Below are positions 21,895 to 42,012 of a stretch of 61,890 nt of DNA, one piece after another. Every line of letters starts with the position of its first letter. The first letter of the stretch is position 1. The notes beneath the pieces are model-generated. The model had not been told where the DNA came from and did not search any database. It worked only from the letters and a program-made list of their open reading frames with translations. A program made the position numbers and the translations under genes. Source of the stretch: Nitrosotalea sp. (lineage in GTDB: Archaea; Thermoproteota; Nitrososphaeria; Nitrososphaerales; Nitrosopumilaceae); the NCBI GenBank assembly GCA_023251295.1, contig JAHEYZ010000001.1, forward strand, positions 1 through 61,890, in the 5' to 3' direction.

Positions 21895-22125
21895 CTATTG
21901 TCTTCCACCGAGGGCCCCAAATATTGCAAATAGTGCAAAGAACAATGCAACAGGAAGTATTCCTATAACAGTCCATGCTGTATCTTTTGCGTTCTGACAT
22001 TCAGTTGCGCCTTGGCCAGTTGGACAATGTATCGAATCGCTAACTTCTGCGAAGATAAGTATGCCAATAAGCAACGCAACGGCCGCGCCAATGAAGGCCA
22101 GAATAAAACCTAAACTTAATACTAT
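21895..22125 (-). CDS. 76-aa two-TM Cys-stapled hairpin protein (minimal family member); no canonical start, ATA aligned to the paralog ATG
   Basis: Hand translation (I)VLSLGFILAFIGAAVALLIGILIFAEVSDSIHCPTGQGATECQNAKDTAWTVIGILPVALFFALFAIFGALGGRQ. An in-frame TGA lies 2 codons upstream. An SD-like GGGGGTGA lies 6 nt upstream of the ATA. Not in the ORF track. Confidence 0.6.
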   Translation of the reverse strand: MVLSLGFILAFIGAAVALLIGILIFAEVSDSIHCPTGQGATECQNAKDTAWTVIGILPVALFFALFAIFGALGGRQ

Positions 22126-22177
22126 TTCAGTTCACCCCCTTTAGTTTCATAACCATTGCATTGCTTTGTAACGTACA

Positions 22178-22255
22178 CTCTTATAAAAGAAAACTTTAGG
22201 TCATATTCAGTCATAGAATGTGTTTTCGTCTGACAAAAAAGTTCTTTTATAAGAG
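22178..22255. promoter_or_regulatory. Back-to-back (divergent) class-A promoters
   Basis: The minus-oriented copy is CTCTTATAAAAGAAAA at 22178-22193. The plus-oriented copy is TTCTTTTATAAGAG at 22242-22255, followed by TCTAGA as in the copies at 29661-29670 and 30845-30852. Confidence 0.6.
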
Positions 22256-22323
22256 TCTAGATCTTCTGAAATATCCTCATTTTCAGTAAAAAAAGTTATT
22301 TGTAACTAGGTTTACTATGATTA

Positions 22324-22527
22324 TTGCTCAAACCATTCAGTGTCAAGTTTACCAATGACAGACTGAACCAACCTGTTACCGCAGAACTGTTCAAAAATGT
22401 AGGCAGGTTCAATCCTGAGAGATGCCCTGAACATGTAAAAATTGAAGATCTTATGATAATTAATGATGAGATCTTCTGTAAAGTGTGCCATCTAAAACTG
22501 AGGATTGTTCCTTCATGGTTATGGTAA
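22324..22527 (+). CDS. Small Cys/His protein, first gene of the only plus-strand operon (TTG start)
   Basis: Contains CPEH...CKVCH. Lies downstream of the plus-oriented class-A promoter. Confidence 0.45.
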   Translation: MLKPFSVKFTNDRLNQPVTAELFKNVGRFNPERCPEHVKIEDLMIINDEIFCKVCHLKLRIVPSWLW

Positions 22528-22563
22528 CAAAACAGCTTTATAGTGTAGATACCAAAAATTACT

Positions 22564-23160
22564 GTGCAACCGCTCAATGCCAAACTGAAAAACTATCTGT
22601 ACCAGTGTAACAGGTTCAAAATCATTGCAGACATGTGGTATTGTGGGCCTTCTGAAAAGGACTATAATAACATGAAATTTGATGGTGCATATCCATCTGG
22701 ATTTTTAAAGAACTGGAAGATCGCCTTTGCTGACTATATTCCATCTGACCCCAAGAAAATCATACATGTCTGTGCTGGCAGAGTTCCAAAATCGGAAGGT
22801 GTTACCCTTGATATTGACATAAAGTACGACCCAGATTATCTCTGCAATGCAGAAACTATGAGATACGGTTCACTGCTTGAAGGAGAGAGGCAAGTTCCAA
22901 GTGATGAGTTTGATTGGGCAATTGCTGATCCACCATACAATGATGAGGCATCAGAAAAATATTACAACAAAAAACTTTTGAACAAATCAATGATGATAAA
23001 ACAAATGGCTAGGATTGTTAGGACTGGTGGGTTTGTTGCAATTCTTGATCAGACAATGCCACAAGGCAAACCAAGTAATTTGGAATGTGTAGCTAGGATT
23101 GGTGTTACCAGTGTTCCAAATTTGGATGTTCGAGTTCTGACAATATTTCAAAAGATTTAA
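22564..23160 (+). CDS. DNA methyltransferase (N6-adenine or N4-cytosine), DPPY motif
   Basis: Motif I-like IIHVCAGRV precedes motif IV WAIADPPYN. The tail reads VRTGGFVAILD. The track start is GTG; the first in-frame ATG is near 22633. Confidence 0.8.
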   Translation: MQPLNAKLKNYLYQCNRFKIIADMWYCGPSEKDYNNMKFDGAYPSGFLKNWKIAFADYIPSDPKKIIHVCAGRVPKSEGVTLDIDIKYDPDYLCNAETMRYGSLLEGERQVPSDEFDWAIADPPYNDEASEKYYNKKLLNKSMMIKQMARIVRTGGFVAILDQTMPQGKPSNLECVARIGVTSVPNLDVRVLTIFQKI

Positions 23161-23208
23161 TTTAATTATGTTGGCATCAAATGACAAAATCGTTTAGGAT
23201 TTATCCGT

Positions 23209-23300
23209 GTGGATTTCATCTGTTTTTCAAATTATTTTGGGCATAAAATGAGAATGCAGAATCCCTTAACCACAATCTAGCCAACTATCAATGTAGAATT
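23209..23300. other. Conserved intergenic element, copy 2 (with a 38-nt insertion relative to copy 1)
   Basis: See 7241-7297. This copy lies between the convergent 3' ends of the plus-strand methyltransferase (23160) and minus-strand ORF 23314..23472. Confidence 0.6.
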
Positions 23301-23313
23301 TTATTGTTTTATA

Positions 23314-23472
23314 TTAGTATTGTTTTGATGAAAGTTTTACTCCCATGCACTTATCACATATTGCTTCCATCCATTCATGTGAATCATTCCAGACAAGTAT
23401 GCATGGTTTTTTCTCTTCTGGTATTGGCTTGCCACATACAAAGCAGTGCGGGTTTTCTTCGTTGTAAACCAT
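23314..23472 (-). CDS. 52-aa zinc-ribbon protein (below the ORF-track cutoff)
   Basis: Hand translation MVYNEENPHCFVCGKPIPEEKKPCILVWNDSHEWMEAICDKCMGVKLSSKQY. Confidence 0.5.
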   Translation of the reverse strand: MVYNEENPHCFVCGKPIPEEKKPCILVWNDSHEWMEAICDKCMGVKLSSKQY

Positions 23473-23486
23473 TTTAAATCTGATTG

Positions 23487-23678
23487 TCAGAGTTTACGCC
23501 ATTTTATCAATTCAATGTGTTCTTTGTTAAGCTGTTCCCAATTCGGCACTTCGTCTTTTTTATATCCACACCACCAAGGACAACTGCACTCAATCTGATC
23601 ATATCTTGCACCATTATGGCATTCGCAGTTATCACTACACATTACACAATCTTCATGATTTTTCTCAGTTGTGTTCAA
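23487..23678 (-). CDS. Cys-rich metal-binding protein
   Basis: Contains CVMCSDNCECHNGARYDQIECSCPWWCGY. Confidence 0.55.
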   Translation of the reverse strand: MNTTEKNHEDCVMCSDNCECHNGARYDQIECSCPWWCGYKKDEVPNWEQLNKEHIELIKWRKL

Positions 23679-23693
23679 ATCAATTCACTTCTA

Positions 23694-24077
23694 TTAGAAA
23701 AGTAATTCCACTTCTTCTATTGATTTTACAAAATGCATTATTGAGTCCTTGAACATATTACCTCTATGAGTTGTTCTATAGATTATTATCTTTCCTGCAT
23801 GTACTTTTTTTCCTGTATCCTCTTCATTTAGATAACCTATCTTCAATAACCTTACAATCAAAGGTCTGGTTTTAATCCAATCTGTTTTAACAACCTGTAT
23901 GATTTTTGATATTTTTGCACCGCCATTACAAACATTTAGAATTTCATATACTATCTCAAACTGATCTCTTCTAGATTTTTTCTTCTCTTCCTTTTTCATA
24001 GCCTTCCTAAATTTGTTGATAATTTTATTATCTATCTTTTCTGATTTTGTTTTCATTACTTTGGTTTCCACCACCAT
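23694..24077 (-). CDS. Winged-helix DNA-binding protein with Lys-rich N-terminus
   Basis: Contains FEIVYEILNVCNGGAKISKIIQVVKTDWIKTRPLIVRLLKIGYLNEED. Confidence 0.65.
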   Translation of the reverse strand: MVVETKVMKTKSEKIDNKIINKFRKAMKKEEKKKSRRDQFEIVYEILNVCNGGAKISKIIQVVKTDWIKTRPLIVRLLKIGYLNEEDTGKKVHAGKIIIYRTTHRGNMFKDSIMHFVKSIEEVELLF

Positions 24078-24211
24078 GTTGTTTCAAATTCTGATCCACA
24101 GTCTTTACATTGAAATTTTGCGATAGTTTCCTTTGTATCGCCTGAATCCCACCATGTATCACAAAATACCATGATCAGTTTTCCAAATGGATGTGGGCAT
24201 TCTTGTGACAT
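24056..24211 (-). CDS. 51-aa zinc-ribbon protein (below cutoff)
   Basis: Hand translation MSQECPHPFGKLIMVFCDTWWDSGDTKETIAKFQCKDCGSEFETTWWWKPK. Confidence 0.4.
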   Translation of the reverse strand: MSQECPHPFGKLIMVFCDTWWDSGDTKETIAKFQCKDCGSEFETTWWWKPK

Positions 24212-24345
24212 GTTTTTCCAGTTCTAAACTCCTTTGTAAATAACTTATCGACCCTTTTTACTTTTGGGTGGAACACCTTGTAGTGAGTCCTCATCCACTT
24301 CCAAACATCTGTTCTATACTTGTCGCATTCAGTACAGATTGCCAT
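24172..24345 (-). CDS. 57-aa C/H zinc-finger protein (below cutoff)
   Basis: Hand translation MAICTECDKYRTDVWKWMRTHYKVFHPKVKR... Confidence 0.4.
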
Positions 24346-24503
24346 TAATCACTACCTTCCTGTATGTGATCGGGAATTGGGAATTGTGCATGGTTCATAA
24401 TATCTGCTTGTCTTTGTGCGCACTCTTTGCACTTTATAATATGTTTTGATAATCCTAACAAAGTCATCATAGTATCCATTTCTTGTTTAGTTAGTTCAGC
24501 CAT
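24345..24503 (-). CDS. 52-aa protein with CxxC (below cutoff)
   Basis: Hand translation MAELTKQEMDTMMTLLGLSKHIIKCKECAQRQADIMNHAQFPIPDHIQEGSD. TAATG overlap with the next ORF. Confidence 0.4.
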   Translation of the reverse strand: MAELTKQEMDTMMTLLGLSKHIIKCKECAQRQADIMNHAQFPIPDHIQEGSD

Positions 24504-24650
24504 ATCTTAGAAATTCCTCTCTCCATATTCCATCATCATCCCATAAATCTAAATTATCTTTTGTCAAGGGTTATTCCTCACGTTTTTGCAATGATCACAA
24601 TTACAATATGGTGAATAATATTTGTTTTTTGGATATTTACATCCCATCTT

Positions 24651-24956
24651 TCATACCTTCGAACTTCCATCCTTTTTTGTAATATGAGATTCTAATGAAA
24701 GTCTAGCAATTTCTGAAACATAGTATTCTATCTCAATCTCTAAAAGCGGATCTAATTTTGGGAATTGTTTTTGAATTACTCGTTCTGTCGCATTGAATAA
24801 TCCTATGTTATCTTTTCTCCCTTCTTTATGCCATATTTTTAAATCCTTTTTAAATTCATTCCAAATTAATTTCTGATATTTTGGTGTTAATGCCACACCT
24901 TGTTTAACATTATCAAGTATTCCTAATTCAACACATTTTTGAAAATTGTCAGACAT
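24651..24956 (-). CDS. Hypothetical protein
   Basis: ORF track, 101 aa. Confidence 0.6.
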   Translation of the reverse strand: MSDNFQKCVELGILDNVKQGVALTPKYQKLIWNEFKKDLKIWHKEGRKDNIGLFNATERVIQKQFPKLDPLLEIEIEYYVSEIARLSLESHITKKDGSSKV

Positions 24957-25078
24957 TAATTAACCAAACCATCCACATCCGCATTTTGTACACGCTATAT
25001 TGTAATCATTATGATCTTTTCTGTCATGTTCACATTGGTTACATTTTCCACCTTTTTGTTTCCATTCAAACCAACCTA

Positions 25079-25321
25079 TCATTTGATTGGATTCCTTTCC
25101 AAGTTTTGTGGATTAATATTTGGTGTTTGTTTTTTAATTAGCCAAACTATAACTGGAATTAAAATTACAACTACTGCTATTAGCAATACATCCAATATTT
25201 GATAGGCGTTTATTGTTTGGATTGGATCTGCTATAGTAAGGTACATGATAGATGCAATAAAACCCATAATCCCTAACGCAACTACAACACCGCCTATCTG
25301 CATTCCAGTTTCTTGTTTCAT
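25079..25321 (-). CDS. Two-TM membrane protein
   Basis: Contains IGGVVVALGIMGFIASIMYL and VLLIAVVVILIPVIVWLI. Confidence 0.6.
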   Translation of the reverse strand: MKQETGMQIGGVVVALGIMGFIASIMYLTIADPIQTINAYQILDVLLIAVVVILIPVIVWLIKKQTPNINPQNLERNPIK

Positions 25322-25550
25322 TTAATTTACCTCTTCGAATCCATTGTAATTTCTAGGATCAGGAACATGTTCGCATGGAACGGTTTTTCTACATTTTATA
25401 CAATACATCATGTGCTACCTTTTACTTTAGATTCAAGCTGTTTGATTAATTTATCTTGGAGTTCTAATGCAGTTTGTAAATTATCTAGTCTTTCATTTAC
25501 TTCTTTCATCCATTTTATTAATCCTTCTGGAAAGACCATTATGTGTTACC

Positions 25551-25796
25551 TTATGCCTTACTCCAAGTATCCAACTTGCTTGCTTCTTCTTCTCTACTCA
25601 TGAAAAAATATCTTGCGGAAAACAATGAAAAGACTAATAATAAAACAGGTAAGTAACCGAATCCCTCTCCATTCATAAACAAAACATAACATATACTTAG
25701 AAAATTAACACCTGCAAAAACTAATAATGTATTAGCGATCATGTTTGATATTTTTATTTCCTTTTCTACTATTTTGGGTAAAATGTAATGCTTCAT
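25551..25796 (-). CDS. Two-TM membrane protein
   Basis: Contains IANTLLVFAGVNFLSICYVLF and YLPVLLLVFSLFSARYFF. Confidence 0.6.
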   Translation of the reverse strand: MKHYILPKIVEKEIKISNMIANTLLVFAGVNFLSICYVLFMNGEGFGYLPVLLLVFSLFSARYFFMSREEEASKLDTWSKA

Positions 25797-25984
25797 TTTT
25801 TATCATCTTTTTTTAATTGAAGTGTTTTATTATAATATCCTGCAAGAAAAAGAGGCATGCATGTATCACAGTAATAGAATGGTTCTTTTCTTGTACGTGA
25901 ATAAAATGTGTTTACAACATGACATTTACATTTTTCACAAACAGTTTGTCCACAATTTGAACAATCCCCTAAGTTACTACTCAT
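25793..25984 (-). CDS. Zinc-finger protein
   Basis: Contains CSNCGQTVCEKCKCH...YCDTC. Confidence 0.55.
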   Translation of the reverse strand: MSSNLGDCSNCGQTVCEKCKCHVVNTFYSRTRKEPFYYCDTCMPLFLAGYYNKTLQLKKDDKK

Positions 25985-26196
25985 ATTTTAGCCTCTGGTT
26001 CTGATTTACTCCAATCAGTCATTTTGATTGTACCTATCAATGCACAAGTCACACCAATCAAAATAAATCCTGTCGAAAGATAATTGGTCACTTCAATTCC
26101 ACTTTCAAATAGTTTTGAACTTATAGTCATAGCAAAACCCATAAACAAAACTACTATGCCGAATAACATTAGTGGTAAGTAAAAGTAGCTATTCAT
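25981..26196 (-). CDS. Two-TM membrane protein
   Basis: Contains LPLMLFGIVVLFMGFAMTI and GFILIGVTCALIGTI. Confidence 0.6.
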   Translation of the reverse strand: MNSYFYLPLMLFGIVVLFMGFAMTISSKLFESGIEVTNYLSTGFILIGVTCALIGTIKMTDWSKSEPEAKI

Positions 26197-26324
26197 ATTT
26201 TTAAATCCAAACTGTAACTATCATCTGAACCACAAACAATATGTTTTGTTTTATGATAATGTATGACCATGTTTTCAAAGGTAAAAAACTCCATCTTACA
26301 ATCAAGACATAAATAACTACTCAT
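26193..26324 (-). CDS. 43-aa classical C2H2 zinc-finger protein (below cutoff)
   Basis: Hand translation MSSYLCLDCKMEFFTFENMVIHYHKTKHIVCGSDDSYSLDLKI. ATGA overlap with 25981..26196. Confidence 0.45.
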   Translation of the reverse strand: MSSYLCLDCKMEFFTFENMVIHYHKTKHIVCGSDDSYSLDLKI

Positions 26325-26474
26325 GGGTTATTCCATTCCTGAGTCATTGTATTAACTCCAAGCATTTGTAATAAATAAATGCAATGTCTTTACATTTCTT
26401 TTGTTTATGATTTTTGAATTTAACTTTGCAGAATGGACATCGATCATCCATTATTGTTAATCTCTTATCACCGA

Positions 26475-26690
26475 TCATTTATTTTCCCTCTCTTTGTTCC
26501 ATTCTTCTGCTTTTTTTCTAACATCTGATCTCCTTACTATCTCCTGAACTTTTTCGTAGAAATTCAGATCTGCACCATAAACTTTTGTTTTGTCAAGCCA
26601 TCCTATGCTGGTTTTTAATTCTTGATCATGATCAGCAAAATCAACCAGTACATCTACCATTTCCATAAAATCTTTTGATGGTTCTGTCAT
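26475..26690 (-). CDS. Hypothetical protein
   Basis: ORF track. Confidence 0.55.
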   Translation of the reverse strand: MTEPSKDFMEMVDVLVDFADHDQELKTSIGWLDKTKVYGADLNFYEKVQEIVRRSDVRKKAEEWNKERENK

Positions 26691-26920
26691 ACATTTCTCC
26701 GCATCTTGCGATTAATTCCCATCCCAAGAACAGACATTGCAATCTCATCTACAAGTTCTTGTAATAACTCTTCATCGTTTTTTTCTGTACCAAGTGGTGT
26801 TAATCTGCACTCAATTAGATGATTATCTATTTTTATTCTCAAATCTTCTGGCGTTATGCTTGGTTGTATTGTTGCATACTTGCCAACCAGACAGCAAATC
26901 AATCTATCCCGTTCCATCAC
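26687..26920 (-). CDS. Hypothetical protein
   Basis: ORF track; 4-nt overlap with the downstream gene. Confidence 0.55.
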   Translation of the reverse strand: MMERDRLICCLVGKYATIQPSITPEDLRIKIDNHLIECRLTPLGTEKNDEELLQELVDEIAMSVLGMGINRKMRRNV

Positions 26921-27086
26921 TTCCCTCTTTATTTATTTCATTGTCTATTGCACTTTCAAACATTGTCCTATACACTCCATAAACATTGTTTTTGTCACAG
27001 ATCTTGTTCCATTCTTCGGGATGATTTTTTCTTGCACATTTCAGATAATCTAATATCATACACAATAGTAAAGTAAATGAAATCAC
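26904..27086 (-). CDS. Hypothetical protein
   Basis: ORF track. Confidence 0.45.
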   Translation of the reverse strand: MISFTLLLCMILDYLKCARKNHPEEWNKICDKNNVYGVYRTMFESAIDNEINKEGSDGTG

Positions 27087-27782: not shown

Positions 27783-28070
27783 TTAGATCGAACATGTTGG
27801 GCAAAATACATTTCTACCCTTCTGTCCACAGTTAGGACATGATCCTGAACTTTTCGGTGAACCATAAACTGGTCTGATTGATGATGCCCGTTGGATTGCA
27901 CCAGATGGTGATTTTTTATATGTCTGTGTTGAAATGTATGACTGACCACCACTTGTTATTTTTTTAACTATCTCTGAATCATTTGCAAACCTTCTTCCTA
28001 CATTGCTACGTATTGTTACTCTTTTTACTATTTTTGGTCTTGGTGGCAATTTTGGTAGGATTGGTGGCAT
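27783..28070 (-). CDS. Basic protein with C-terminal zinc ribbon (paralog of 6392..6676)
   Basis: Reads MPPILPKLPPRPK...CPNCGQKGRNVFCPTCSI. A class-A promoter is centred 30 nt upstream of the ATG. Confidence 0.75.
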   Translation of the reverse strand: MPPILPKLPPRPKIVKRVTIRSNVGRRFANDSEIVKKITSGGQSYISTQTYKKSPSGAIQRASSIRPVYGSPKSSGSCPNCGQKGRNVFCPTCSI

Positions 28071-28890: not shown

Positions 28891-29646
28891 CTATGATTTT
28901 GGAATCACAAAATTAAACAACGTGAACAAACCGAAGAAAAGGGCAACTGGCATTATTCCTATCACCGACCATGCAATATCTTTGGCCGACTGGCACTGTT
29001 CAGAACCAGTTTCTCCTTCACCAACACTACCGCCTGTAGCAGTTACTTTCAATAACATATCTTCTATGCCAAACTGTTGAAAGAAACCAGATAGGGGATC
29101 TTCTTGATGCATCCATAAATGACCTGAACTAATATCTGAGGTTGAACTTAGAAATTCAGCTTCACTATCCCAATTTTCCATGTGTAATGCTACAAATGTA
29201 TTTGGATCATTTACTGTTACAGGTGGAGTGAAAAGAAATGTAAAGTTAACATTACTACCACCAGCTAATTGTTCCGTATTATCTGATTCTGCAACTAATG
29301 TTGATGTATCTATATCTGTTACAGCTCCTATCCAAATTTGTGATTCGATTGTTCCAGTAGTTTCACCAAATGTATTAATTCCATTTACTGTAACTGACGT
29401 TATTTGTTGTCCTGTAGTTGAAACTAACTGACCAATCCATGTATTTGTAGCTCCACCATTTATTGTACTATCTGATGATTCTGCTAGTGTATCAAATGGT
29501 ATATCTGAACTGCCACCGCCACCGCCACCGCCACTTGAAGCAGGACATTCCAATGAATCTGCTACTTCACCAAAAGCAAAAATACCTACTAGCAACCCTG
29601 CACCAGATCCAACTAATGCCAATACTAGCGCCAGTGATACTACCAT
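28891..29646 (-). CDS. Two-TM Cys-stapled hairpin-family protein carrying a roughly 170-aa Gly/Thr/Ser-rich ectodomain cassette
   Basis: N-terminus MVVSLALVLALVGSGAGLLVGIFAFGEVADSLECPASSGGGGGG. C-terminus GSEQCQSAKDIAWSVIGIMPVALFFGLFTLFNFVIPKS. Both ends are shared with 29689..30828. Confidence 0.85.
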   Translation of the reverse strand: MVVSLALVLALVGSGAGLLVGIFAFGEVADSLECPASSGGGGGGGSSDIPFDTLAESSDSTINGGATNTWIGQLVSTTGQQITSVTVNGINTFGETTGTIESQIWIGAVTDIDTSTLVAESDNTEQLAGGSNVNFTFLFTPPVTVNDPNTFVALHMENWDSEAEFLSSTSDISSGHLWMHQEDPLSGFFQQFGIEDMLLKVTATGGSVGEGETGSEQCQSAKDIAWSVIGIMPVALFFGLFTLFNFVIPKS

Positions 29647-29670
29647 TACTGGTTTTTTATCATGTCTAGA

Positions 29671-29686
29671 CTCTTATAAAAGAAAA
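29671..29686 (-). promoter_or_regulatory. Class-A promoter motif
   Basis: Exact motif, preceded on the plus strand by TCTAGA. The ATG at 29646 is 32 nt from the TATA centre. Confidence 0.7.
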
Positions 29687-29688
29687 TT

Positions 29689-30828
29689 TTATGATTTTGG
29701 AATCACAAAATTAAACAACGTGAACAAACCGAAGAAAAGGGCAACTGGCATTATTCCTATCACCGACCATGCAATATCTTTGGCCGACTGGCACTGTTCA
29801 GAACCAGTTCCATCACTTCCACCGCTACCTGTGGTTGTTACAACTCCATTTGCAGTTGTATCATCAAAACTATAATATGCAACTCTTGTTGATGGTGATA
29901 TTCCGAGTGAAGATACACTTGCACCAGAACCACTATTCCACATATTATCAATGTCAGTATCACTTAAGATATAGCCATTCCAAATTGCAAGGTCATCAAC
30001 CATGAAAGTATCTTCAATGTTTGAACCACCACTGTTATGATCTCCATCACTGCCAATTGTTAAAAAGTCAATCGGTGGGTTATTATTACCAGTCCAATCA
30101 TTTTTTGTGCCACCATTGTTGGCTGTTGCATCCCCACGACATCCTTCAACTACTCCACCATTACCTAAGTCACTTGTTCCATCAAGGCAATACCTAAAGT
30201 TTGCATTTCCCGTTGTAATTGATTTGTCGTATGTAAATGTCAATAAGTGCCATTGACCATCATCTGGTGGTTCGCTTGGAGTTGGTGACATAAAAGCTGA
30301 GATTTTTTGACTGTTATCATCCTCAATTATTGGGCGAAGTCTTCCTGATTCTGTTTCAATAAATAATCCATCTGTCTGACCGACTGGTGCAAAGTTTGAA
30401 AGTAAATGATATTCATTACTACCAACCACATCGCCCTTCAACCAAAACGAAATACTAATTTCATCAGATCCAGTTGCTTGACCTGACAAAAACCACCAAT
30501 CAGAAGGTGTAGATCCAAGATAAATTTCACCGTTAAGTGCGCCACCGCCACTTGCAACTCCTTCCTGTACTACAGCCTCATTAATTTTTCCTGTCACTGA
30601 TGGCAAGAAATCAACAATGACTTCCGACTCTGCATAAACCGCATCCTCAGCAGAACCCAAAGTTCCCAAATTATCATAACTTGTAACATTTGTAACAGAA
30701 ATCAATGTACTTCCACTTGAAGCTGGACATTCCAATGTATCAGAAACTTCACTAAAAGCAAAAATGCCGATTAGTAACCCTGCACCAGATCCAATTAATG
30801 CCAATACTAGCGCCAGTGATACTACCAT
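29689..30828 (-). CDS. Two-TM Cys-stapled hairpin-family protein carrying a LamG / concanavalin-like lectin ectodomain cassette
   Basis: Same N- and C-terminal blocks as 28891..29646. The central region SISFWLKGDVVGSNEYHLLSN...GQWHLLTFTYD...VDDLAIWNGYILSDTDIDNMWNSG matches the Laminin_G_3 pattern. Confidence 0.85.
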   Translation of the reverse strand: MVVSLALVLALIGSGAGLLIGIFAFSEVSDTLECPASSGSTLISVTNVTSYDNLGTLGSAEDAVYAESEVIVDFLPSVTGKINEAVVQEGVASGGGALNGEIYLGSTPSDWWFLSGQATGSDEISISFWLKGDVVGSNEYHLLSNFAPVGQTDGLFIETESGRLRPIIEDDNSQKISAFMSPTPSEPPDDGQWHLLTFTYDKSITTGNANFRYCLDGTSDLGNGGVVEGCRGDATANNGGTKNDWTGNNNPPIDFLTIGSDGDHNSGGSNIEDTFMVDDLAIWNGYILSDTDIDNMWNSGSGASVSSLGISPSTRVAYYSFDDTTANGVVTTTGSGGSDGTGSEQCQSAKDIAWSVIGIMPVALFFGLFTLFNFVIPKS

Positions 30829-30852
30829 TACTGGTTTTTTATCACATCTAGA

Positions 30853-30868
30853 CTCTTATAAAAGAAAA
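30853..30868 (-). promoter_or_regulatory. Class-A promoter motif
   Basis: Exact motif. The ATG at 30828 is 32 nt from the TATA centre. The motif overlaps the last codons of ORF 30869..31021. Confidence 0.7.
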
Positions 30869-31021
30869 TTAAATTCTTGGAAAGTCCTGTTTGAATCTCT
30901 TTTTCTTCTGACCTCTTCGTAAAAGCCTCTTACAGACTTTGCATTTGATCTCTGTCTTTGGGTAAACTAATTCACATAATCGACAATAATTATTGACTGC
31001 ATAATCTGGTTTTTTTGCCAT
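30869..31021 (-). CDS. 50-aa basic zinc-ribbon protein (below cutoff)
   Basis: Hand translation MAKKPDYAVNNYCRLCELVYPKTEIKCKVCKRLLRRGQKKKRFKQDFPRI. TAATG overlap with 31021..31242. Confidence 0.5.
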   Translation of the reverse strand: MAKKPDYAVNNYCRLCELVYPKTEIKCKVCKRLLRRGQKKKRFKQDFPRI

Positions 31022-36972: not shown

Positions 36973-37539
36973 CTATTTTTGATCGCTGAATCGATTCATA
37001 TAACTACTTGTATGATCTGTAAATACAATTTTATTATTATAATTTTGGTCTTTTATTATTTTGAATAATGCTTTAGGATGTTCAGAATCCACTACATGTT
37101 TCATTAAATATCGTAATGTTGTAACTGGACTACAATCGGCTTCTAATGCACCAGTAAATCTTGCTGAATCCCATGTAATTCCTGTTGGTGTAATTGTTAT
37201 TTCGTCTATCATCCATCTCATCCATGATAACTCCATTCTAGTTCCAATTTGATATTGAATATGTGATTCATTAGAACCATCTATTGCTTCCATTCTTTTC
37301 CTTACATAATATTCTAAAACATTACATGCATGATGAACTAATGCCCAATTTGATCCATCTCTTGGATTATTAAATGTGTCACCATCAATATGATGTATGT
37401 CTGCATTTGTTTTTGAATCAGCCAATGGTCTGTGACAAATTGGACAGTTTAACCCATCCTTTCCGATACAGATACATCTTGCATAATCATAATCTGACTG
37501 ATTAAATTTTTTTCTTCTTCTGTCTTCTGAATAGAACAT
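36973..37539 (-). CDS. HNH endonuclease
   Basis: CPICHRPLADSKTNADIHHIDGDTFNNPRDGSNWALVHHACN is a canonical HNH pattern (CxxC, HH..G..N, N, HxxCN). Confidence 0.85.
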   Translation of the reverse strand: MFYSEDRRRKKFNQSDYDYARCICIGKDGLNCPICHRPLADSKTNADIHHIDGDTFNNPRDGSNWALVHHACNVLEYYVRKRMEAIDGSNESHIQYQIGTRMELSWMRWMIDEITITPTGITWDSARFTGALEADCSPVTTLRYLMKHVVDSEHPKALFKIIKDQNYNNKIVFTDHTSSYMNRFSDQK

Positions 37540-37643
37540 TTGTATCCTTGATAGGTTATTGTTAAATTATTATTAGTTTAAAAAAGCTTGGTTTGATGTC
37601 AATTTTTGATCGCTGTTAGCGATCTATTTCATAACTATTTCTT

Positions 37644-37805
37644 TTAGATATTCTCAAATGCCCTGTTGAGCATATCGCGTAATGTATTTGCCTGAATCCT
37701 TGATCTCTTGTTACGACCTTTCACATAGCCAATTCTCTTATTTTTATAATTTCTAATTACGATTCCTTTGTCAGTTTCATCTAGCTTGTATGGTTTCTTT
37801 GGCAT
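37644..37805 (-). CDS. 53-aa basic protein (below cutoff)
   Basis: Hand translation MPKKPYKLDETDKGIVIRNYKNKRIGYVKGRNKRSRIQANTLRDMLNRAFENI. Confidence 0.45.
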   Translation of the reverse strand: MPKKPYKLDETDKGIVIRNYKNKRIGYVKGRNKRSRIQANTLRDMLNRAFENI

Positions 37806-37820
37806 CTGATTATCAGACTC

Positions 37821-38012
37821 CTATACTTTGAACATGTCGTCAGTGGAAAGTCCTTTTCTTCTCTTACCCTTATTGTGTTCTGGGTAGATTCTTTTTCCAC
37901 CAATGGAAACAATGGTGTTTCCTTTCACTTTTTCAAAGTCGCCATGTATGTGTCCATACGCCAGCCATTTCTGGTAGCCTGCCCGTGTTTTGAAATTCAA
38001 TTTATGTGGCAT
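37821..38012 (-). CDS. Small basic protein ending in ...STDDMFKV
   Basis: ORF track. The C-terminal motif is shared with neighbouring genes. Confidence 0.6.
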   Translation of the reverse strand: MPHKLNFKTRAGYQKWLAYGHIHGDFEKVKGNTIVSIGGKRIYPEHNKGKRRKGLSTDDMFKV

Positions 38013-38014
38013 AA

Positions 38015-39097
38015 TTAAAACCTGAAAATATCCTCTGGTGAAAAACCTCTTGACCTTTTTCTTGGTGACTTGCCTGATATAGAAGTTATTTCTTTGAATG
38101 AAAATGGATTCTCTTCCACCTTTATTTTCTTGCTCTGAGGCTGGCTGAATCCATAAAATGCAAACGGATCTGCTACCTTTGCCTCTTGTCTTTTTTGTTT
38201 TCTTTCTTCAAATCCAGTCAATGATTCAAATGTAAATAATCCTTCCAGCCTGCTTGGTTTTTTCTTTGTTGACTTCTTTCCCAATCCTACAAAGCCACCG
38301 AAAATATCCTGTTGTGTTCTTTGTTTTGGTGTAGAGAAATAATCAATCGGTTCTTGTGGTGCTTCAATTGGTGGGAAATACTCTTCTGGTGGTGCGTTGT
38401 ATGGTTCTGGTTCTGTCGGAAATAGATTTGATGGTATTGGTTCTTCTCTTACAGATGGCATTTCTTCTAATGGTGCAGGTAATGGTTCTAAAACATTTTC
38501 ATCACCTGAAAATATACTTTCACATATTCCATTAACCAAGTGTTCGTTTACACCACATGTCATTGGATTTAGGACTTCCTCATTTCCAAATCCAATTGGT
38601 TCTGGTGCTTGAAATAAATCTCCTGCTTCCAATGGTGGCGGTTGGAATGGGTCAACGTTTGGTGCTGGTTCAATTGGAGAAAAGATTGACTCTTCTTCTT
38701 GTTTTTGTCTTTCAATTTCTGCCAGTCTGTCAAGTTCAGCCTGTCTTTCCAATTCAGCTTCTAATTCAATTTGTGCTTGTCTTGCAAGTTCTGCCTTTCT
38801 TGCTTCGTCTGCTAGTCTTGCTTCTTCTTTAAGTCTGGCTTCTTCTGCCAGTCTTGCTTTTTCTTGTTCCTTGGCAATATCAAAATAAGAATATCCATTA
38901 TCGTTATAGAAATTTTGTAACTCTTGTTGTAGTTTTTGTTGGTAAACTGTTACGTTAAATGTTCTTGCTTCAACTAATCTTTGGTAGTTTAGATTGGTTG
39001 GACTTGATTTTAATAATGTTTTTGCTTCTGCTAGTGATGCTTGCTCAGTTGATAGTAACTGTTGCGCCCTCTGTACATCACTTGCGCTAGTACTCAA
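38015..39097 (-). CDS. Coiled-coil, Pro-rich protein ending in ...SPEDIFRF (TTG start)
   Basis: ARLAEEARLKEEARLADEARKAELARQAQIELEAELERQAELDRLAEIERQ is followed by a P/E-rich region and an IFGGF motif. Confidence 0.75.
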   Translation of the reverse strand: MSTSASDVQRAQQLLSTEQASLAEAKTLLKSSPTNLNYQRLVEARTFNVTVYQQKLQQELQNFYNDNGYSYFDIAKEQEKARLAEEARLKEEARLADEARKAELARQAQIELEAELERQAELDRLAEIERQKQEEESIFSPIEPAPNVDPFQPPPLEAGDLFQAPEPIGFGNEEVLNPMTCGVNEHLVNGICESIFSGDENVLEPLPAPLEEMPSVREEPIPSNLFPTEPEPYNAPPEEYFPPIEAPQEPIDYFSTPKQRTQQDIFGGFVGLGKKSTKKKPSRLEGLFTFESLTGFEERKQKRQEAKVADPFAFYGFSQPQSKKIKVEENPFSFKEITSISGKSPRKRSRGFSPEDIFRF

Positions 39098-39222
39098 ATT
39101 GCAACCTCTCCGCTTCCTTCTTTGTCAATTTTATTCTGAAATTTCTTTTACGTTTTCCTTTCGGTGATAGCTGATAATTTATTTCATCAATGAGGATCAA
39201 GCCTAGGAATAAACTCATTTTA

Positions 39223-39414
39223 CTAATTTCCCCCTCTGATTATTTTCTTAAAACCTTTTGTAAAATCATAATTTGACAATGAATCATCGTCATCATCATA
39301 TTTTTTTCTTATAATTTTATGTGCTTTTTCTGCGGGTATTCCTTTTCTCTCTAATCTATGCTCTTCGTTTATTACTTCGTCTGCTGTAACATCATCGTCA
39401 TCGTAATTATTCAT
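39223..39414 (-). CDS. Small acidic protein (poly-Asp runs)
   Basis: Contains NNYDDDDV and KYDDDDDS. Confidence 0.5.
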   Translation of the reverse strand: MNNYDDDDVTADEVINEEHRLERKGIPAEKAHKIIRKKYDDDDDSLSNYDFTKGFKKIIRGGN

Positions 39415-39644
39415 ATCATCTTTCCTGTAATCTTTTCAAAGTCATCATTGTTCTTTGCCTTTTTCTTTGCTTTTTTTATCTCGTCAATCCCCAAGTCACA
39501 TGCGCAATATCCTAACTTATGCATTATGTTACATCTCCATAGTATGGATTGCCTTTCTTCGGTGAGAAACTCTTGTTTCTAACCTTTGTAATATCAGTTG
39601 GAACTTTTACTGATATGTTTTCCTTGTATGTGTATTTGTTTTTC

Positions 39645-40220
39645 TTATGTGTTATCAAATACATCCTTCCCCCTGAATGATCTTCCCCTTGAATAATTCA
39701 ATGCCTCTTCTCCTGTTAGTGGCTGTCCACCAGCATCAAGAACTTGGTATCTTATATCTTCATAATAATTACTGAATCTTTTTGGTATTCTTTTCTTTTG
39801 TACAACTACAATTTCTTCCCGATCACCTGAATACTCATCCATTTTATCTGCTTCCTCATCTGTCAATGGAACTTTTTTTATTGTTACTTTTACGTTTGAG
39901 TCCTTCCTTTTTTCCTCTATGTTATTCATTGCTTTGGTTAGTTTTGGAATCTTTGGAATATTAAACTTGAATGGTGATACTGCATTATCTTCAAGCATGA
40001 ATAATTCGTTCGGTTCATCATAGTTTTGGTTAATTATCATTGGTGATGATGGTCTGTTATGCAATGCATCATCATTCTGGAAATATTCATCTGTGAATCC
40101 AACCCCTGAGTTTCCTAAATCCCCAAAGTCCATGCCAGAAAATTTCATGTCACTATCATTAACTTCAAATCCATCCATCACGCCTTTGGATCTTTTTTTA
40201 TATTTTCCCATATTAGTCAC
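39645..40220 (-). CDS. Hypothetical protein ending in ...RGKDVFDNT
   Basis: ORF track, 191 aa. Confidence 0.7.
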   Translation of the reverse strand: MTNMGKYKKRSKGVMDGFEVNDSDMKFSGMDFGDLGNSGVGFTDEYFQNDDALHNRPSSPMIINQNYDEPNELFMLEDNAVSPFKFNIPKIPKLTKAMNNIEEKRKDSNVKVTIKKVPLTDEEADKMDEYSGDREEIVVVQKKRIPKRFSNYYEDIRYQVLDAGGQPLTGEEALNYSRGRSFRGKDVFDNT

Positions 40221-40457
40221 CTAGAAATTGAATGAGAACATGTCGTCAGTATCATAAGCATCTCTACTTTTTTGTCTTCTTTGTCTTGGCTGATTTTCAT
40301 TGTAAATATTATAATTATTGGTCTTTCTTCTTGATCTTCGTCTTTGTCCTTGATCCAGATTTCTTTGTGCTTGGTTTGCAAATCCTGTGAACAGTGAAAG
40401 TCCTACACCAAGTATTGCTAAATCCACTGCTGTTCCCAATAATCCTGATGAACTCAT
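40221..40457 (-). CDS. Membrane-anchored basic protein ending in ...DTDDMFSFNF
   Basis: N-terminal TM segment LLGTAVDLAILGVGLSLFTGF, followed by an R/Q-rich region. Confidence 0.65.
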   Translation of the reverse strand: MSSSGLLGTAVDLAILGVGLSLFTGFANQAQRNLDQGQRRRSRRKTNNYNIYNENQPRQRRQKSRDAYDTDDMFSFNF

Positions 40458-40789
40458 AGGAATCTGAATCCCCCTTCTCCAAACATTTCTTCGATGTCAT
40501 TGAATGCTTTCTTTCCTTTTTCTTTTGTATATCCACTCGGTTCTTTTCTAACCACTGTGTCAATTCCTGCCAAGTCATGTCGTGTTGGATCATTATAGAA
40601 TTTTGAGAAACTATCTGTAACTCCTTTTGTACTTGCATTATCAACATCTCTTGCCTTCTTTGATCTTAATTCATTATGACCGTACCATCCTGCGTACATC
40701 TTTTCCTTTTCAGTTACACCGCTTCTTCTTCCCATCTTACTGACCTTCCTCTGGTGATGAAGTTTCAAATTCTCCACTACCTGCACCAT
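40454..40789 (-). CDS. Basic protein ending in ...DIEEMFGEGGFRFL (the likelier start is the ATG at 40735, 1 nt after the upstream stop)
   Basis: ORF track. I treat the alternative-frame ORF 40315..40647 as spurious. Confidence 0.6.
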   Translation of the reverse strand: MVQVVENLKLHHQRKVSKMGRRSGVTEKEKMYAGWYGHNELRSKKARDVDNASTKGVTDSFSKFYNDPTRHDLAGIDTVVRKEPSGYTKEKGKKAFNDIEEMFGEGGFRFL

Positions 40790-41510
40790 GACCTAGAGCT
40801 ACCTTTGTACTTGTGAATTTTGTTTTTTGAACTGCATTTCGTTTTGCTCTTTTCTCTTCATATCTGCGTTTCAAATTTTCAAATCTTGTTTCTCTTCTCT
40901 CTTCTCTTCCTTCTTTCTTTGCTTTCTTTGATTCTCGTTTCTCTTCTTTTTCACGTTTCAATCTGTCACGTCTTATTCCTCTTGCTTCTCTCTCTGCACT
41001 TTTTTCTAGCTTACCTCTGCTAACACCGAAACTTTCACCACTTCTAAACACTGCTGGCACTGCTTCTTCCTTTACTTTGAACACTGGTGATACTGCTTCT
41101 CCCCTTCTTGCACCTTTATCATAATCAATTGATCCTGTTCCAGAACCTACGCTTTCAATAAATCCACTGCCAATATTTTTGAATCTGCCATTGAATGCAC
41201 CGCCAAGATCATGTGTTTCAAATCCACGCCTGTGTTGTTTTTTCTCAATGTCATTATTACAGTCAACACATGTTTCGCCAAATTCTGATAGTGGATTTGT
41301 TTCGAACCCGCCAAGATAAATATTATCATCCATATAGTTTGATTTATTTCCACCATAAGATTTTCCCTCATGTTTCAATCCACCAAAAATATTTCCCAAA
41401 GCATTCTGATCTACTGGTAGCATTCCAACATCATTCATTCTTCCTCTTTTTTTATTTCGTCTTGATCCGTTTGCTTCCCTTTGCATTGAACCAATCAAGT
41501 CAAAACTCAT
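40737..41510 (-). CDS. Gly-rich, strongly basic protein (K/R/E-rich C-terminal half)
   Basis: Contains NIFGGLKH, DLGGAFNG and REKEEKRESKKAKKEGREERRETRFENLKRRYEEKRAKR. Confidence 0.75.
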   Translation of the reverse strand: MSFDLIGSMQREANGSRRNKKRGRMNDVGMLPVDQNALGNIFGGLKHEGKSYGGNKSNYMDDNIYLGGFETNPLSEFGETCVDCNNDIEKKQHRRGFETHDLGGAFNGRFKNIGSGFIESVGSGTGSIDYDKGARRGEAVSPVFKVKEEAVPAVFRSGESFGVSRGKLEKSAEREARGIRRDRLKREKEEKRESKKAKKEGREERRETRFENLKRRYEEKRAKRNAVQKTKFTSTKVALGHGAGSGEFETSSPEEGQ

Positions 41511-41634
41511 TTTTTACAACCTCATCTTTCTTTCTATTTTTTACCCTAATCGCTTGGAAGCTCAAAACTGAAACTGCCATCACGCCTGTAGTAATTAGAG
41601 AAAATCCTAATGTATCGATCCCACTCATACACAT
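41500..41634 (-). CDS. 44-aa single-TM peptide, first gene behind the class-A promoter (below cutoff)
   Basis: Hand translation MCMSGIDTLGFSLITTGVMAVSVLSFQAIRVKNRKKDEVVKNEF. The ATG is 27 nt from the TATA centre. The 3' end overlaps the start of 40737..41510. Confidence 0.45.
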   Translation of the reverse strand: MCMSGIDTLGFSLITTGVMAVSVLSFQAIRVKNRKKDEVVKNEF

Positions 41635-41654
41635 GGTTTTCTTGATGTTCCAGA

Positions 41655-41670
41655 GTCTTATAAAAGAAAA
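41655..41670 (-). promoter_or_regulatory. Class-A promoter motif (GTCTTATAAAAGAAAA)
   Basis: Read directly from the sequence. Confidence 0.65.
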
Positions 41671-41676
41671 CTACTG

Positions 41677-42012
41677 CTATTCTTTCAATTTTGCCAATCC
41701 TAGATATAATAGAATTTTGGCAAATAATGAGAGGTTTTTCATATTTTTTGTTCTAGATTTTACCTTTCTGTCAAATAATTTTGATATTGGGTTCTCCATT
41801 CCAAGCACCATCGGGATTATTAATAGTATAATTGCAACTGGCATAATTGCAATTATACTCCACATGTTATCTTTTACACTTTGACATTCCTTGCTTCCCT
41901 GTCCTGTTGGACATTCCAGTGTATCAGAAACTTCACTCATAATTGGAATTGCTATTAACATCAGTACCATGACAGCTACAAAAGCCATTATCAAGCCCAT
42001 TGGAATTGGCAT
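41677..42012 (-). CDS. Two-TM Cys-stapled hairpin-family protein (minimal loop) with amphipathic basic C-terminal extension
   Basis: Reads MPIPMGLIMAFVAVMVLMLIAIPIMSEVSDTLECPTGQGSKECQSVKDNMWSIIAIMPVAIILLI... The ATG at 42012 overlaps the methyltransferase stop (TAATG). The track start at 42033 is GTG. Confidence 0.75.
   Translation of the reverse strand: MPIPMGLIMAFVAVMVLMLIAIPIMSEVSDTLECPTGQGSKECQSVKDNMWSIIAIMPVAIILLIIPMVLGMENPISKLFDRKVKSRTKNMKNLSLFAKILLYLGLAKLKE

Follow-up and report, generated by a model that had tools for sequence, protein, structure and literature searches.

The stretch analysed here (the window, 61,890 nucleotides) encodes six members of a family of two-helix hairpin proteins, and at slightly better than even confidence we regard them as the coat (capsid or envelope) proteins of an undescribed virus lineage of marine Nitrososphaerales ammonia-oxidizers, known from genes alone. 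Judging from sequence comparisons, this lineage is most likely a distant relative of the putative spindle-shaped Nipumfusiviridae with a much larger genome (at least 62 kb).

Hairpin proteins of the window and their wider family

The initial annotation described a family of four open reading frames with a common architecture. All four were recovered where it had placed them and the architecture was confirmed; the count, however, had to be raised to six, all encoded on the minus strand. The four named genes encode proteins of 76 aa (21895..22125), 251 aa (28891..29646), 379 aa (29689..30828), and 111 aa (41677..42012), which follow one plan: a first helix, an (E)V(S)D..C motif, a loop, a C..AKD..W motif, and then a second helix. 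The alignment revealed 19 invariant columns common to the four, including both cysteines, and by hydropathy each protein has two hydrophobic segments at its extreme ends. Only 8 aa separate the two cysteines in the minimal 76-aa member (loop PTGQGATE) and in the 111-aa member, which adds a basic C-terminal tail ending in LGLAKLKE and whose start codon, ATG, shares 1 nt with the stop codon of the MT-A70 gene before it. In the 251- and 379-aa members the alignment placed an insert, previously put at 170–300 aa, exactly between the two cysteines, as had been claimed; it is an all-beta domain of ~180 aa set between Gly-rich linkers in the former, and in the latter it spans ~310 aa and contains a ConA-like lectin/glucanase (Laminin_G_3) domain. 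When the family HMM was run against 119 window proteins, three of the four named members, those for which a start can be called (111, 251, and 379 aa), scored far beyond chance (E = 1e-24 to 1e-31); the 76-aa copy was missing from this set because it lacks a canonical start.

The two additional members, of 176 aa (20357..20887, minus strand) and 184 aa (19806..20360, minus strand), are divergent, and each joins a Cys-less hairpin to a C-terminal domain of ~110 aa. The 176-aa protein has two hydrophobic segments and a full-length BLASTP match to family member P0124 (E = 9e-29); the 184-aa protein matched P0124 over its whole length (E = 2e-28) and is the best sub-threshold family-HMM match in the window. 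The AlphaFold2 model of the 76-aa member is a confident helix-turn-helix hairpin (pLDDT 86.6; helix 5–31, turn 32–39, helix 40–72), which together with the hydropathy profiles bore out the proposed two-TM hairpin. In the model of the 251-aa member, helices 5–31 and 213–247 flank the all-beta insert, for which Foldseek returned weak CBM/discoidin/galactose-binding-like matches.

The frame of the 76-aa gene opens at ATA behind an SD-like GGGGGTGA. Upstream lie a consensus promoter box, TTTTCTTTTATAAG (22180-22193, minus strand), and, at the normal distance from it, a canonical ATGGTT (22151-22156, minus strand); this normal leaderless start is interrupted by an insertion of ~31 nt (22120-22150, minus strand) that carries an in-frame TGA, and the 76-aa reading frame therefore begins at ATA. 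A comparison of start regions showed that the promoter box of relatives L017 and L018 lies ~25 nt upstream of ATGGTTCTATCA, and the 76-aa protein is 95% identical to its homologue P0001. Consensus boxes also precede the ATG by 26 nt in the 251-aa gene (box at 29673..29686, minus strand; leaderless-type spacing) and in the 379-aa gene (box at 30855..30868, minus strand), each of the three genes thus having its own consensus promoter. The 251- and 379-aa genes share a 5′ arm (158 nt, 92%) and a 3′ arm (140 nt, 94%).

A word-index search for the family returned 104 homologues and an exhaustive HMM search 198 cluster representatives, all of them metagenomic or in Nitrososphaerales MAGs, the only hosts found. 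The family occurs in virus- or MGE-like contexts only, in ammonia-oxidizing archaea, and among 185,579 species genomes it was present at only 4 loci, none in a core-gene context. One copy in a Nitrososphaerales MAG lies inside a small chromosomal MTase+DUF5131 island flanked by housekeeping genes. The family was not found among 2.9 million IMG/VR contigs; this absence and the damaged start of the window's 76-aa copy were both counted against the coat-protein reading.

Four architectures were distinguished: the bare hairpin, the hairpin with a basic C-terminal tail, the hairpin with a C-terminal domain, and the hairpin with a tip insert of 70–800 aa; short members measure 64–91 aa. Tip inserts, bracketed by Gly-rich linkers, are present in about 70 of the 198 cluster representatives, and the recognizable ones are ConA-like lectin, BNR (sialidase-like), and CBM/discoidin-like domains. 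Insertion of domains at the loop recurs across the family and is a general feature of it. Relatives L007 and L011 carry tandem paralogous copies, which are also known from other spindle viruses (PMC12451623).

Across clusters the helices are nearly invariant and the loop (8–24 aa) is hypervariable. The loop is acidic (D+E 5.5 vs. K+R 1.5) and the C-terminus basic, and the charges obey the positive-inside rule. N-x-S/T sequons are about 2-fold enriched in the loops (63 observed vs. 30.8 ± 4.6 in shuffles), and an STT3/AglB gene adjoins the hairpin gene in L008/L009. Both cysteines are present in 173 members, neither in 51, and one in 3. The conserved pair of the initial annotation thus behaves as a coupled unit, kept or lost together, but not a universal one, and its loss in 22% of members means that the scaffold can do without it.

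Comparison with spindle-shaped viruses

[quoted passage not shown] The host group, Nitrosopumilaceae, is that of the window element. The Nipumfusiviridae MCP, of ~82–108 aa, is similar in size to the short window members and of the same design: a conserved first helix ending in ..V.DC, a loop of variable length with N-x-S/T sequons, C, and a conserved second helix, with exactly two cysteines. Its gene precedes a second hairpin gene and a giant ORF and itself follows, at a distance of a few kb, the shared NTPase gene; L011, L007, L020, and NMP1 all have this succession of NTPase, hairpin(s), and giant ORF. An hhalign comparison with the MCP profile gave 50% probability and E = 1.6e-4 with C1–C1 and C2–C2 aligned, scores that TM-rich sequences inflate, and the family HMM ranked three Nipumfusiviridae MCPs 1–3 of the 477 ORFs of three genomes (E = 3e-5 to 9e-3). 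The reverse search of the window with the NYMAG profile returned nothing significant, and the MCP has no BLAST-level similarity to the window hairpins. In further contrast to the window family, the best 120 of 323 MCP clusters measure 70–108 aa and none has an insert or tail; the element, at least 62 kb, also exceeds the 27–38 kb genomes cited for VP1-type spindle viruses, Nipumfusiviridae included (PMC10866085).

[quoted passage not shown] The window has a homologue of the ATPase, a STAND/AAA-type NTPase of 455 aa (3608..4975, minus strand; Pfam nSTAND3) that is a lineage hallmark common with the Nipumfusiviridae and matched NMP1 ORF50 at E = 2e-20 (25% identity over 339 aa) and NBC1 at E = 1e-19. 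By BLASTP (E < 1e-4) against NMP1, NTM1, and NBC1, 2 of the 119 window proteins matched, namely the NTPase and the giant ORF, at 24–30% identity, which places the element outside the family by average identity.

VP1-type MCPs (SSV1/SSV19 VP1, PDB 7XDI; His1 VP21) resemble the window family in being two-helix hairpins of ~70–90 aa, and VP1-type spindle viruses, like the window element, have paralogous copies within one genome. The predicted 81-aa MCP of NSV1 (Thaspiviridae), compared by description, is likewise small with two hydrophobic helices. Foldseek against 350,542 PDB chains placed 7xdi_A, a 69-residue SSV19 chain that we take to be VP1, on top for the 76-aa model (TM 0.50/0.54 over 64 columns; probability 0.23; E = 2.7, not significant); a hairpin of two helices is among the simplest of folds. 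The capsid/envelope interpretation put forward initially is supported in part, by the hairpin, the context, the Nipumfusiviridae parallels, recurrent insertion, and the coupling of the cysteines, but not in its link to the SSV1 VP1 and His1 VP21 families: SSV/His1-type capsid PHROGs gave no match to the family even at E ≤ 10, and neither did a PDB sequence search or tblastn against phage/archaeal-virus records. With regard to the Thaspiviridae, no polB domain was among the Pfam matches, scanned or precomputed, and no terminal repeats were found in the window, which is an incomplete genome. No case of a loop stapled by cysteines, of inserted domains, or of C-terminal tails is known to us for VP1-type families, literature searches included. 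In VP1-type spindle-virus MCPs the turn is exposed and in some cases glycosylated (PMC10866085), and the reference MCPs of NSV1 and the Nipumfusiviridae are predicted only (PMC8491892, PMC10866085).

The nonsignificant SSV19 match, and a genome much larger than those cited for VP1-type spindle viruses (PMC10866085), would also suit envelope or membrane proteins of a virion that is not spindle-shaped (pleomorphic, enveloped, vesicle-like), an alternative that we consider unlikely. The hairpins would then be lipid anchors in a host-derived membrane rather than a proteinaceous lattice, and the insert-bearing members would be spikes anchored by two helices, a role for which lectin-like ectodomains are fitting; the topology and the exposed, sequon-rich loop would be the same. 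However, the remote profile match, the architecture, and the synteny point specifically to the predicted Nipumfusiviridae MCPs, and the extreme conservation of the helices suggests protein-protein packing constraints, not a mere lipid anchor.

Gene content of the element

In L011, a homologue of the NTPase (E = 1.5e-59) is encoded directly upstream of two hairpin genes, and NTPase and hairpin genes co-occur on contigs of L007 and P0095. A giant FN3-rich adhesin-like protein (53851..61890, minus strand), which exceeds 2,709 aa in L019, runs past the window end; it is 58–70% identical to the L020 giant and 36% to a 1,149-aa fn3+LamG protein of L007, with weak matches to Nipumfusiviridae giants. 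In relatives, hairpin genes lie just upstream of the orthologue of this ORF. The four genes downstream of it (206, 223, 83, and 79 aa, three with TM segments; 50791..53031, minus strand) are 47–61% identical to L007 genes in the same order, and with the giant ORF they make up a putative structural module common with L007. Against the coat-protein reading, the actual lattice subunit may be one of the other small two-TM window proteins, such as that of 51266-51517, which is kept in L007, and the window has no recognizable hallmark gene of replication or packaging.

Nor was a capsid, portal, terminase, or polymerase gene recognized there, as would be expected if the hairpins were non-virion proteins of a mobile element, residing in the host cytoplasmic membrane for glycan-binding display or surface remodelling (for example in adhesion, superinfection exclusion, receptor masking, or egress). 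The absence from IMG/VR, the copy in a small chromosomal island, and the multiple dispersed copies with their own promoters are in line with this reading, yet we hold it to be quite improbable: the tandem paralogues resemble VP1/VP3-type duplication (PMC12451623), and the hairpin genes keep a conserved place beside the NTPase and the giant adhesin-like ORF, arranged as in the MCP module of the ICTV-classified Nipumfusiviridae. Moreover, bare hairpins with an 8-aa loop display nothing.

Homology to an unrelated cellular membrane-protein family, named at the outset as a finding that would tell against a coat role, did not emerge in Pfam, NCBI-sourced names, or the PDB. That the hairpins are an ordinary Nitrososphaerales membrane-protein family or a holin-like lysis protein, in the window by assembly context, is very hard to credit: class II holins are likewise small two-TM proteins of N-in/C-in topology and one source names homologues 'CDP-diglyceride synthetase', but these JGI names are inconsistent, look spurious, and have no counterpart in those three resources, the 4 loci in species genomes lie outside core-gene contexts, and six copies in one element, inserts of as much as 800 aa, and sequon-rich, hypervariable loops are unlike holins. 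Class II holins are encoded singly beside an endolysin in a lysis cassette; as no lysin domain is found in neighbouring genes either, class II holin identity was rejected.

A proposed coat with a modular surface

Returning to the coat-protein reading, we infer that the hairpins are incorporated into the virion. Each subunit would be a two-helix membrane hairpin inserted N-in/C-in, and its inter-helix loop would therefore face outward, to the cell exterior and later the virion surface. The base of the loop would be pinned in most members by the Cys–Cys pair, most likely as a disulfide, and the loop itself could vary freely and probably carries N-glycans. Bare hairpins (75–90 aa) would form the bulk lattice subunit, and because the paralogues keep the same two helices, they could co-assemble into one lattice. 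The insert-bearing members, with a glycan-binding-type beta domain at the apex on flexible Gly-rich linkers, may be surface-displayed adhesion or receptor-binding subunits, and those that end in a basic tail or a small C-terminal domain would reach inward to contact DNA or the inner face.

Decoration and insertion domains of other viral capsid proteins offer an analogy to the hairpin inserts. The family may be likened to loop-insertion display scaffolds, in which a conserved, assembly-competent core takes whole folded domains, of lectin/CBM-like folds, at one surface site; it differs in that nothing more than a two-helix membrane hairpin serves as core and a single turn, Cys-bracketed in most members, as insertion site. 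More tentatively, the two-helix capsid hairpin may be a modular display platform in a globally distributed lineage of large (60–90 kb) viruses of ammonia-oxidizers, having repeatedly accepted whole folded domains (70–800 aa; lectin, CBM, sialidase-like) at its Cys-stapled apex and tails at its inner end. If this is true, bare subunits, subunits decorated outward, and subunits tailed inward would make up the virion as a mosaic lattice, and capsids would have diversified in a way undescribed for spindle-shaped or other archaeal viruses.

Two-helix hairpin proteins of the window and their promoters

The initial annotation described a four-member family of two-transmembrane (TM) hairpin proteins at 21895-22125 (76 aa), 28891-29646 (251 aa), 29689-30828 (379 aa) and 41677-42012 (111 aa). 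The proteins are real, but they lie on the minus strand: plus-strand translations were full of stops and were ruled out, whereas minus-strand translation yielded all four described proteins. All four are related, and the count rises to six: two divergent members at 19806-20360 (-) and 20357-20887 (-) aligned over their full length, hairpin included, to the homologue P0124 (E = 2e-28 and 9e-29), which clearly belongs to the family, has both Cys and carries a C-terminal domain of ~110 aa. A MAFFT alignment of the original four contained 19 invariant columns, including E27, V28, D30, C34, P35, C43, Q44, K47, D48, W51, P58, V59 and A60, and agreed with the annotation that the inserts of the two long members (183 aa and 311 aa) fall exactly between the two Cys. 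When 119 minus-strand window proteins were searched with the family HMM, the 111-, 251- and 379-aa members scored E = 1e-24 to 1e-31, and the next-best protein E = 0.056; the 76-aa copy, 95% identical to homologue P0001, was not in this set because its start could not be called. Pfam and PHROGs searches of the four proteins identified only Laminin_G_3, in the 379-aa member's insert; a sub-threshold EI24 match was dismissed as TM noise.

Hydropathy analysis showed two hydrophobic segments per protein, one at each extreme terminus. A helical hairpin was predicted with confidence for the 76-aa member by AlphaFold2 from a 27-sequence alignment (pLDDT 86.6; helix 5-31, 8-residue turn, helix 40-72). 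The AlphaFold2 model of the 251-aa member has this pair of helices at 5-31 and 213-247, with an all-beta insert between them; pLDDT is 66 for the whole model and 71-83 within the beta core. The tandem 251- and 379-aa genes (28891-30870) share a 158-nt 5' arm (92% identical, promoter included) and a 140-nt 3' arm (94% identical), and the inserts between the arms are unrelated, which suggests duplication followed by either a cassette-like swap of inserts or gene conversion of the arms.

A 14-nt box, TTTTCTTTTATAAG, occurs in 13 copies in the window against 0.9 expected (e.g., at 7156, 12192, 22180, 28094, 29673, 30855 and 41657); seven copies are perfect, and those seven are all on the coding strand. 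Several ATGs, among them those of the 251- and 379-aa genes, lie 21-26 nt downstream of the box, a distance that corresponds to archaeal TATA/BRE-like spacing and suggests leaderless transcription units. The box also precedes family genes in the related loci L007, L010, L011, L017 and L018. Unlike the promoter-box members, the 111-aa gene overlaps the MT-A70 gene by 1 nt and is coupled to it. In close relatives of the 76-aa gene, a promoter-like box is located ~25 nt upstream of ATGGTTCTATCA (M-V-L-S). The window has the box at 22180-22193 and ATGGTT at that same distance (24 nt), followed by a ~31-nt insertion that separates ATGGTT from the gene body (window 22120-22193). The insertion contains an in-frame TGA and the SD-like GGGGGTGA, after which the gene body resumes at ATA-GTA-TTA-AGT, with no canonical start. 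This copy is either a decaying gene or pseudogene, or it is expressed by an unusual SD+ATA initiation or uORF/SD/ATA re-initiation.

Architectures, inserts and the loop across the family

The core profile, run as a word-indexed search against 5.8 billion proteins, returned 104 homologues, all unannotated or spuriously named, one of them labelled Nitrosopumilaceae archaeon; an exhaustive HMM search of 1.84 billion representatives returned 198 clusters at E <= 1e-3 and 126 at E <= 1e-10. The proteins have four architectures: bare hairpins (64-91 aa, loop 5-24 aa); tailed hairpins (about 100-180 aa) with a basic tail that averages 59 aa (K+R 12.4 vs. D+E 6.9) and terminates in a conserved motif, GLAKVKK or HSFLTNWFRKKK; hairpins with a ~110-aa C-terminal domain; and insert-bearing proteins (140-874 aa, about 70 representatives), in which TM1 is extreme N-terminal, TM2 extreme C-terminal and all remaining sequence sits at the turn. 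Few inserts were identified by Pfam (BNR_2 in three, Laminin_G_3 in three and DUF6923 in one). The insert of the 251-aa member, with Gly-rich linkers on either side, recurs in P0142, P0105, P0108, P0117 and P0133 and has a weak likeness to discoidin, galactose-binding and CBM16-22-36 beta-sandwiches and to phage baseplate domains (structural matches with E = 5e-3 to 4e-2, probability up to 0.98). The inserts that could be identified are therefore glycan-binding or glycosidase-type folds.

The helices are near-invariant among clusters, whereas the loop is hypervariable in both length and sequence. N-x-S/T sequons occur at 2.26 per 100 aa in the loop vs. 0.18 elsewhere, and the 63 observed in loops are about two-fold over composition-matched shuffles (30.8 +/- 4.6), with 0 of 2,000 shuffles at or above the observed count. 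Family charges match the positive-inside rule for an N-in/C-in, loop-out topology. The Cys pair, originally proposed as conserved, is so in most members but not in all: after hmmalign of trimmed cores, 173 members had both Cys, 51 had neither and three had one. The pair is thus kept or lost as a unit (Fisher's p 3e-47, a statistic that ignores phylogeny), which speaks for the two residues acting together, most simply as an extracytoplasmic disulfide. Joint loss has affected two clades or more, among them a large insert-bearing one (second Cys to F) and a tailed one, and hence shows that the putative staple is dispensable.

Genomic setting, host and gene order

The window has 33% GC, no tRNA and 119 ORFs (86% coding), virtually all on one strand. 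Identifiable domains are scarce: FN3 repeats in a giant ORF (53851-61890, -), a STAND NTPase (3608-4975, -), an MT-A70 adenine methyltransferase (42012-42566), an AAA_5 MoxR/CobS-like ATPase that weakly matches CobS of cyanophages, an R2K-clade ATP-grasp enzyme, HTH proteins and a faint HNH match. The AAA_5, R2K and MT-A70 accessory genes lie at 1134-2363, 12818-13564 and 42012-42566. Terminal-repeat tests found no terminal repeats in the window. The giant ORF has no upstream stop inside the window and extends past its end, so the element is larger than 62 kb; in L019, a contig that also begins inside this ORF, it exceeds 2,709 aa, and contigs with the same NTPase reach about 90 kb. A search for NTPase homologues returned none with a virus name. 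Three hydrophobic segments mark the C-terminus of the giant ORF, and fn3 and Laminin_G_3 domains are present in the L020 and L007 orthologues; a role as tail, fibre or adhesin protein is probable. At the other end, the window begins inside an ORF (1-983, -), the last ~150 nt of which (plus-strand 1-150) are tandem 15-nt repeats, CTGTCTGAGTCATCA, that on the minus strand would encode an acidic Asp/Ser repeat. A perfect consensus promoter box drives the gene of a 95-aa protein (27783-28070, -), which is very basic, Pro/Lys/Arg-rich, has a C-terminal CxxC...C zinc-ribbon-like motif and is a candidate DNA-binding structural protein; a zinc-binding protein is among the Nipumfusiviridae core genes (PMC10866085).

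Among GTDB species genomes, the family was found at four loci only, all in Nitrososphaerales/Nitrosopumilaceae MAGs. One of them (L010, 5600-10231 of the 592-kb Nitrososphaerales contig CBDAOC010000019.1) has a short hairpin gene inside a small island of an N6/N4 DNA methylase, a phage-associated DUF5131 gene, an unknown gene and the hairpin gene, in that order, which adjoins Thi4 and an aldo-keto reductase and is likely an integrated element or remnant. The same MAG has a second hairpin copy (L013) with an apparently altered N-terminus. In L008 and L009, a 635-aa STT3/AglB oligosaccharyltransferase (PF02516; L008 7712-9619) is encoded ~400 nt upstream of the hairpin gene; a virus- or MGE-encoded N-oligosaccharyltransferase beside a sequon-rich putative coat protein would be notable. 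The L008 contig is virus-like, and a plastocyanin-like copper-binding protein is also encoded immediately upstream of its hairpin gene (10001-10252). Homing-endonuclease-type genes (Vsr/NUMOD3, LAGLIDADG_2) were seen near hairpin genes at L008 11080-13431 and L021 11362-12198.

Gene order is common to the Nipumfusiviridae genome NMP1 (NTPase ... MCP, second hairpin, giant ORF) and three related loci: L011 (NTPase, hairpin, hairpin), L007 (hairpin A, hairpin B, divergent C-type hairpin, giant fn3/LamG protein, four genes) and L020 (hairpin, two C-type hairpins among five small genes, giant ORF). The four genes after the L007 giant correspond in order to window genes 50791-53031, with 47-61% identity. 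By synteny, the canonical slot for the putative coat gene of the element lies just past the window edge. The L020 hairpin is 91% identical to the window's 76-aa member and the L020 giant 58-70% identical to the window's; no neighbour gene in L020 has a match in the window, so the 76-aa gene is a relocated copy. The C-type hairpins form a second two-helix family (...VLP.FL..AIV.W..L.VTRRD.GE), encoded after the A-type hairpins and before the giant ORF, at L007 10144-10395, L020 10418-10744 and 11151-11438, and NMP1 (L014) 2726-2995; one has its own Cys pair in the loop, and no homologue was found inside the window. A conserved 313-354-aa protein with unassigned function is always transcribed divergently from the short hairpin gene (L007 8251-9312, L008 5710-6774, L020 8691-9713 and L021 8610-9551, opposite strand; 27-36% mutual identity). 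It has no counterpart in the window, where the plus-strand ORF 22564-23160 was rejected as a candidate after giving no tblastn match.

Links to Nipumfusiviridae and possible roles

Two-helix coat proteins of spindle viruses, including predicted ones of viruses of ammonia-oxidising archaea (AOA), are already known, so the kind is not new. For NYMAG-47 and ten IMG/VR genomes, Ni et al. (2024) put forward a two-helix protein of 89 aa as the MCP, based on HHpred (75%) and structural comparison with SSV19 VP1; its turn is unusually long and carries a sequon (PMC10866085). In the published genome, this MCP consists of MAENNIMGLVGAFIGIAIMLGIGVQILGNSVQDC, a 20-aa loop with NAT, CETNNTQTQNAY and TM2. 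Its family (323 clusters) has the same design as the hairpin family: among the best 120 of the 323, 118 have exactly two Cys, and the sequon loop varies in length. Direct similarity is weak, with 17-25% probability for profile against sequence and 50% (E = 1.6e-4, 59 columns) profile against profile, where the first Cys aligns on the first and the second on the second (hhalign). Among all 477 six-frame ORFs of three Nipumfusiviridae genomes, the hairpin profile ranked exactly the three MCPs at the top (E = 3e-5, 3e-3 and 9e-3). Links independent of the hairpin family come from the window NTPase, which matches NMP1 ORF50 (E = 2e-20) and NBC1 (E = 1e-19), and from the giant ORF, which matches Nipumfusiviridae giants (E = 1e-20 and 5e-9). 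Nipumfusiviridae was ratified by ICTV in 2025 with a shared MCP and ATPase as demarcation genes (PMC12451623); the element has the NTPase in common with that family, but its amino-acid identity and genome size place it outside the demarcation.

Searches of classical families returned little. PHROG capsid families gave no match even at E <= 10, and the NYMAG control failed too; a PDB sequence search returned only melibiose permease (E = 1.1, noise), and Foldseek against BFVD only insignificant small helical phage proteins. The top Foldseek match for the hairpin model was the 69-residue chain 7xdi_A (E-value 2.7), which we take to be SSV19 VP1 because PDB entry 7XDI contains VP1, VP4, C131 and B210 (PMC10866085). 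Two IMG/VR scans found no relatives (the single match, L003, was a high-GC phage and a false positive), tblastn found no match in 50,697 phage and archaeal-virus records, a set without NSV1 (MK570053) and NYMAG-47 (OR367329), and the family is not mentioned in the 2025 global AOA virome preprint.

We lean, by a modest degree, towards the hairpin proteins being coat proteins of an undescribed, large-genome relative of Nipumfusiviridae that infects AOA. The hairpin would insert N-in/C-in and thereby expose its turn, which is hypervariable, in most cases closed by the putative Cys staple and probably a carrier of N-glycans. Most of the virion lattice or envelope would be built from bare hairpins, and paralogues could co-assemble because all keep the same two helices. 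Insert-bearing paralogues would use Gly linkers to present lectin-, CBM- or sialidase-like domains on the outside, where these would serve in adhesion or receptor binding, and tailed and C-domain paralogues would point inward, to the DNA or inner face. Other small two-TM proteins of the conserved module (e.g., 51266-51517) could instead be the true lattice subunit. With the same topology and outward-facing inserts, the proteins might instead be envelope or spike proteins anchored in the membrane of an enveloped, non-spindle particle, a reading we consider unlikely; a little less probable still is that a mobile element places them in the host membrane without packaging them. That they are cellular or holin-like is very improbable.

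The hairpin family itself, which is unannotated and absent from IMG/VR, phage records and the literature searched, appears to be new. So do the repeated acceptance of entire domains at the tip of the hairpin, the variants with a tail or C-domain, the coupling of the two Cys in the putative staple and the size of the genome. If the coat-protein reading is true, current viral-detection pipelines have missed a whole unannotated lineage of large AOA viruses, since it is absent from IMG/VR and has no PHROG matches, and the family profile would be a specific marker for finding it. The Cys coupling and the sequon-rich hypervariable loop lead to testable hypotheses of disulfide stapling and, because an STT3/AglB gene neighbours a hairpin gene, of virus-directed N-glycosylation. 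The coat-protein reading would also mean that the simplest known capsid building block, a two-helix hairpin, can carry full-size folded domains at its tip, which would suggest a minimal membrane or capsid display scaffold for engineering and would bear on host recognition by spindle-type capsids.
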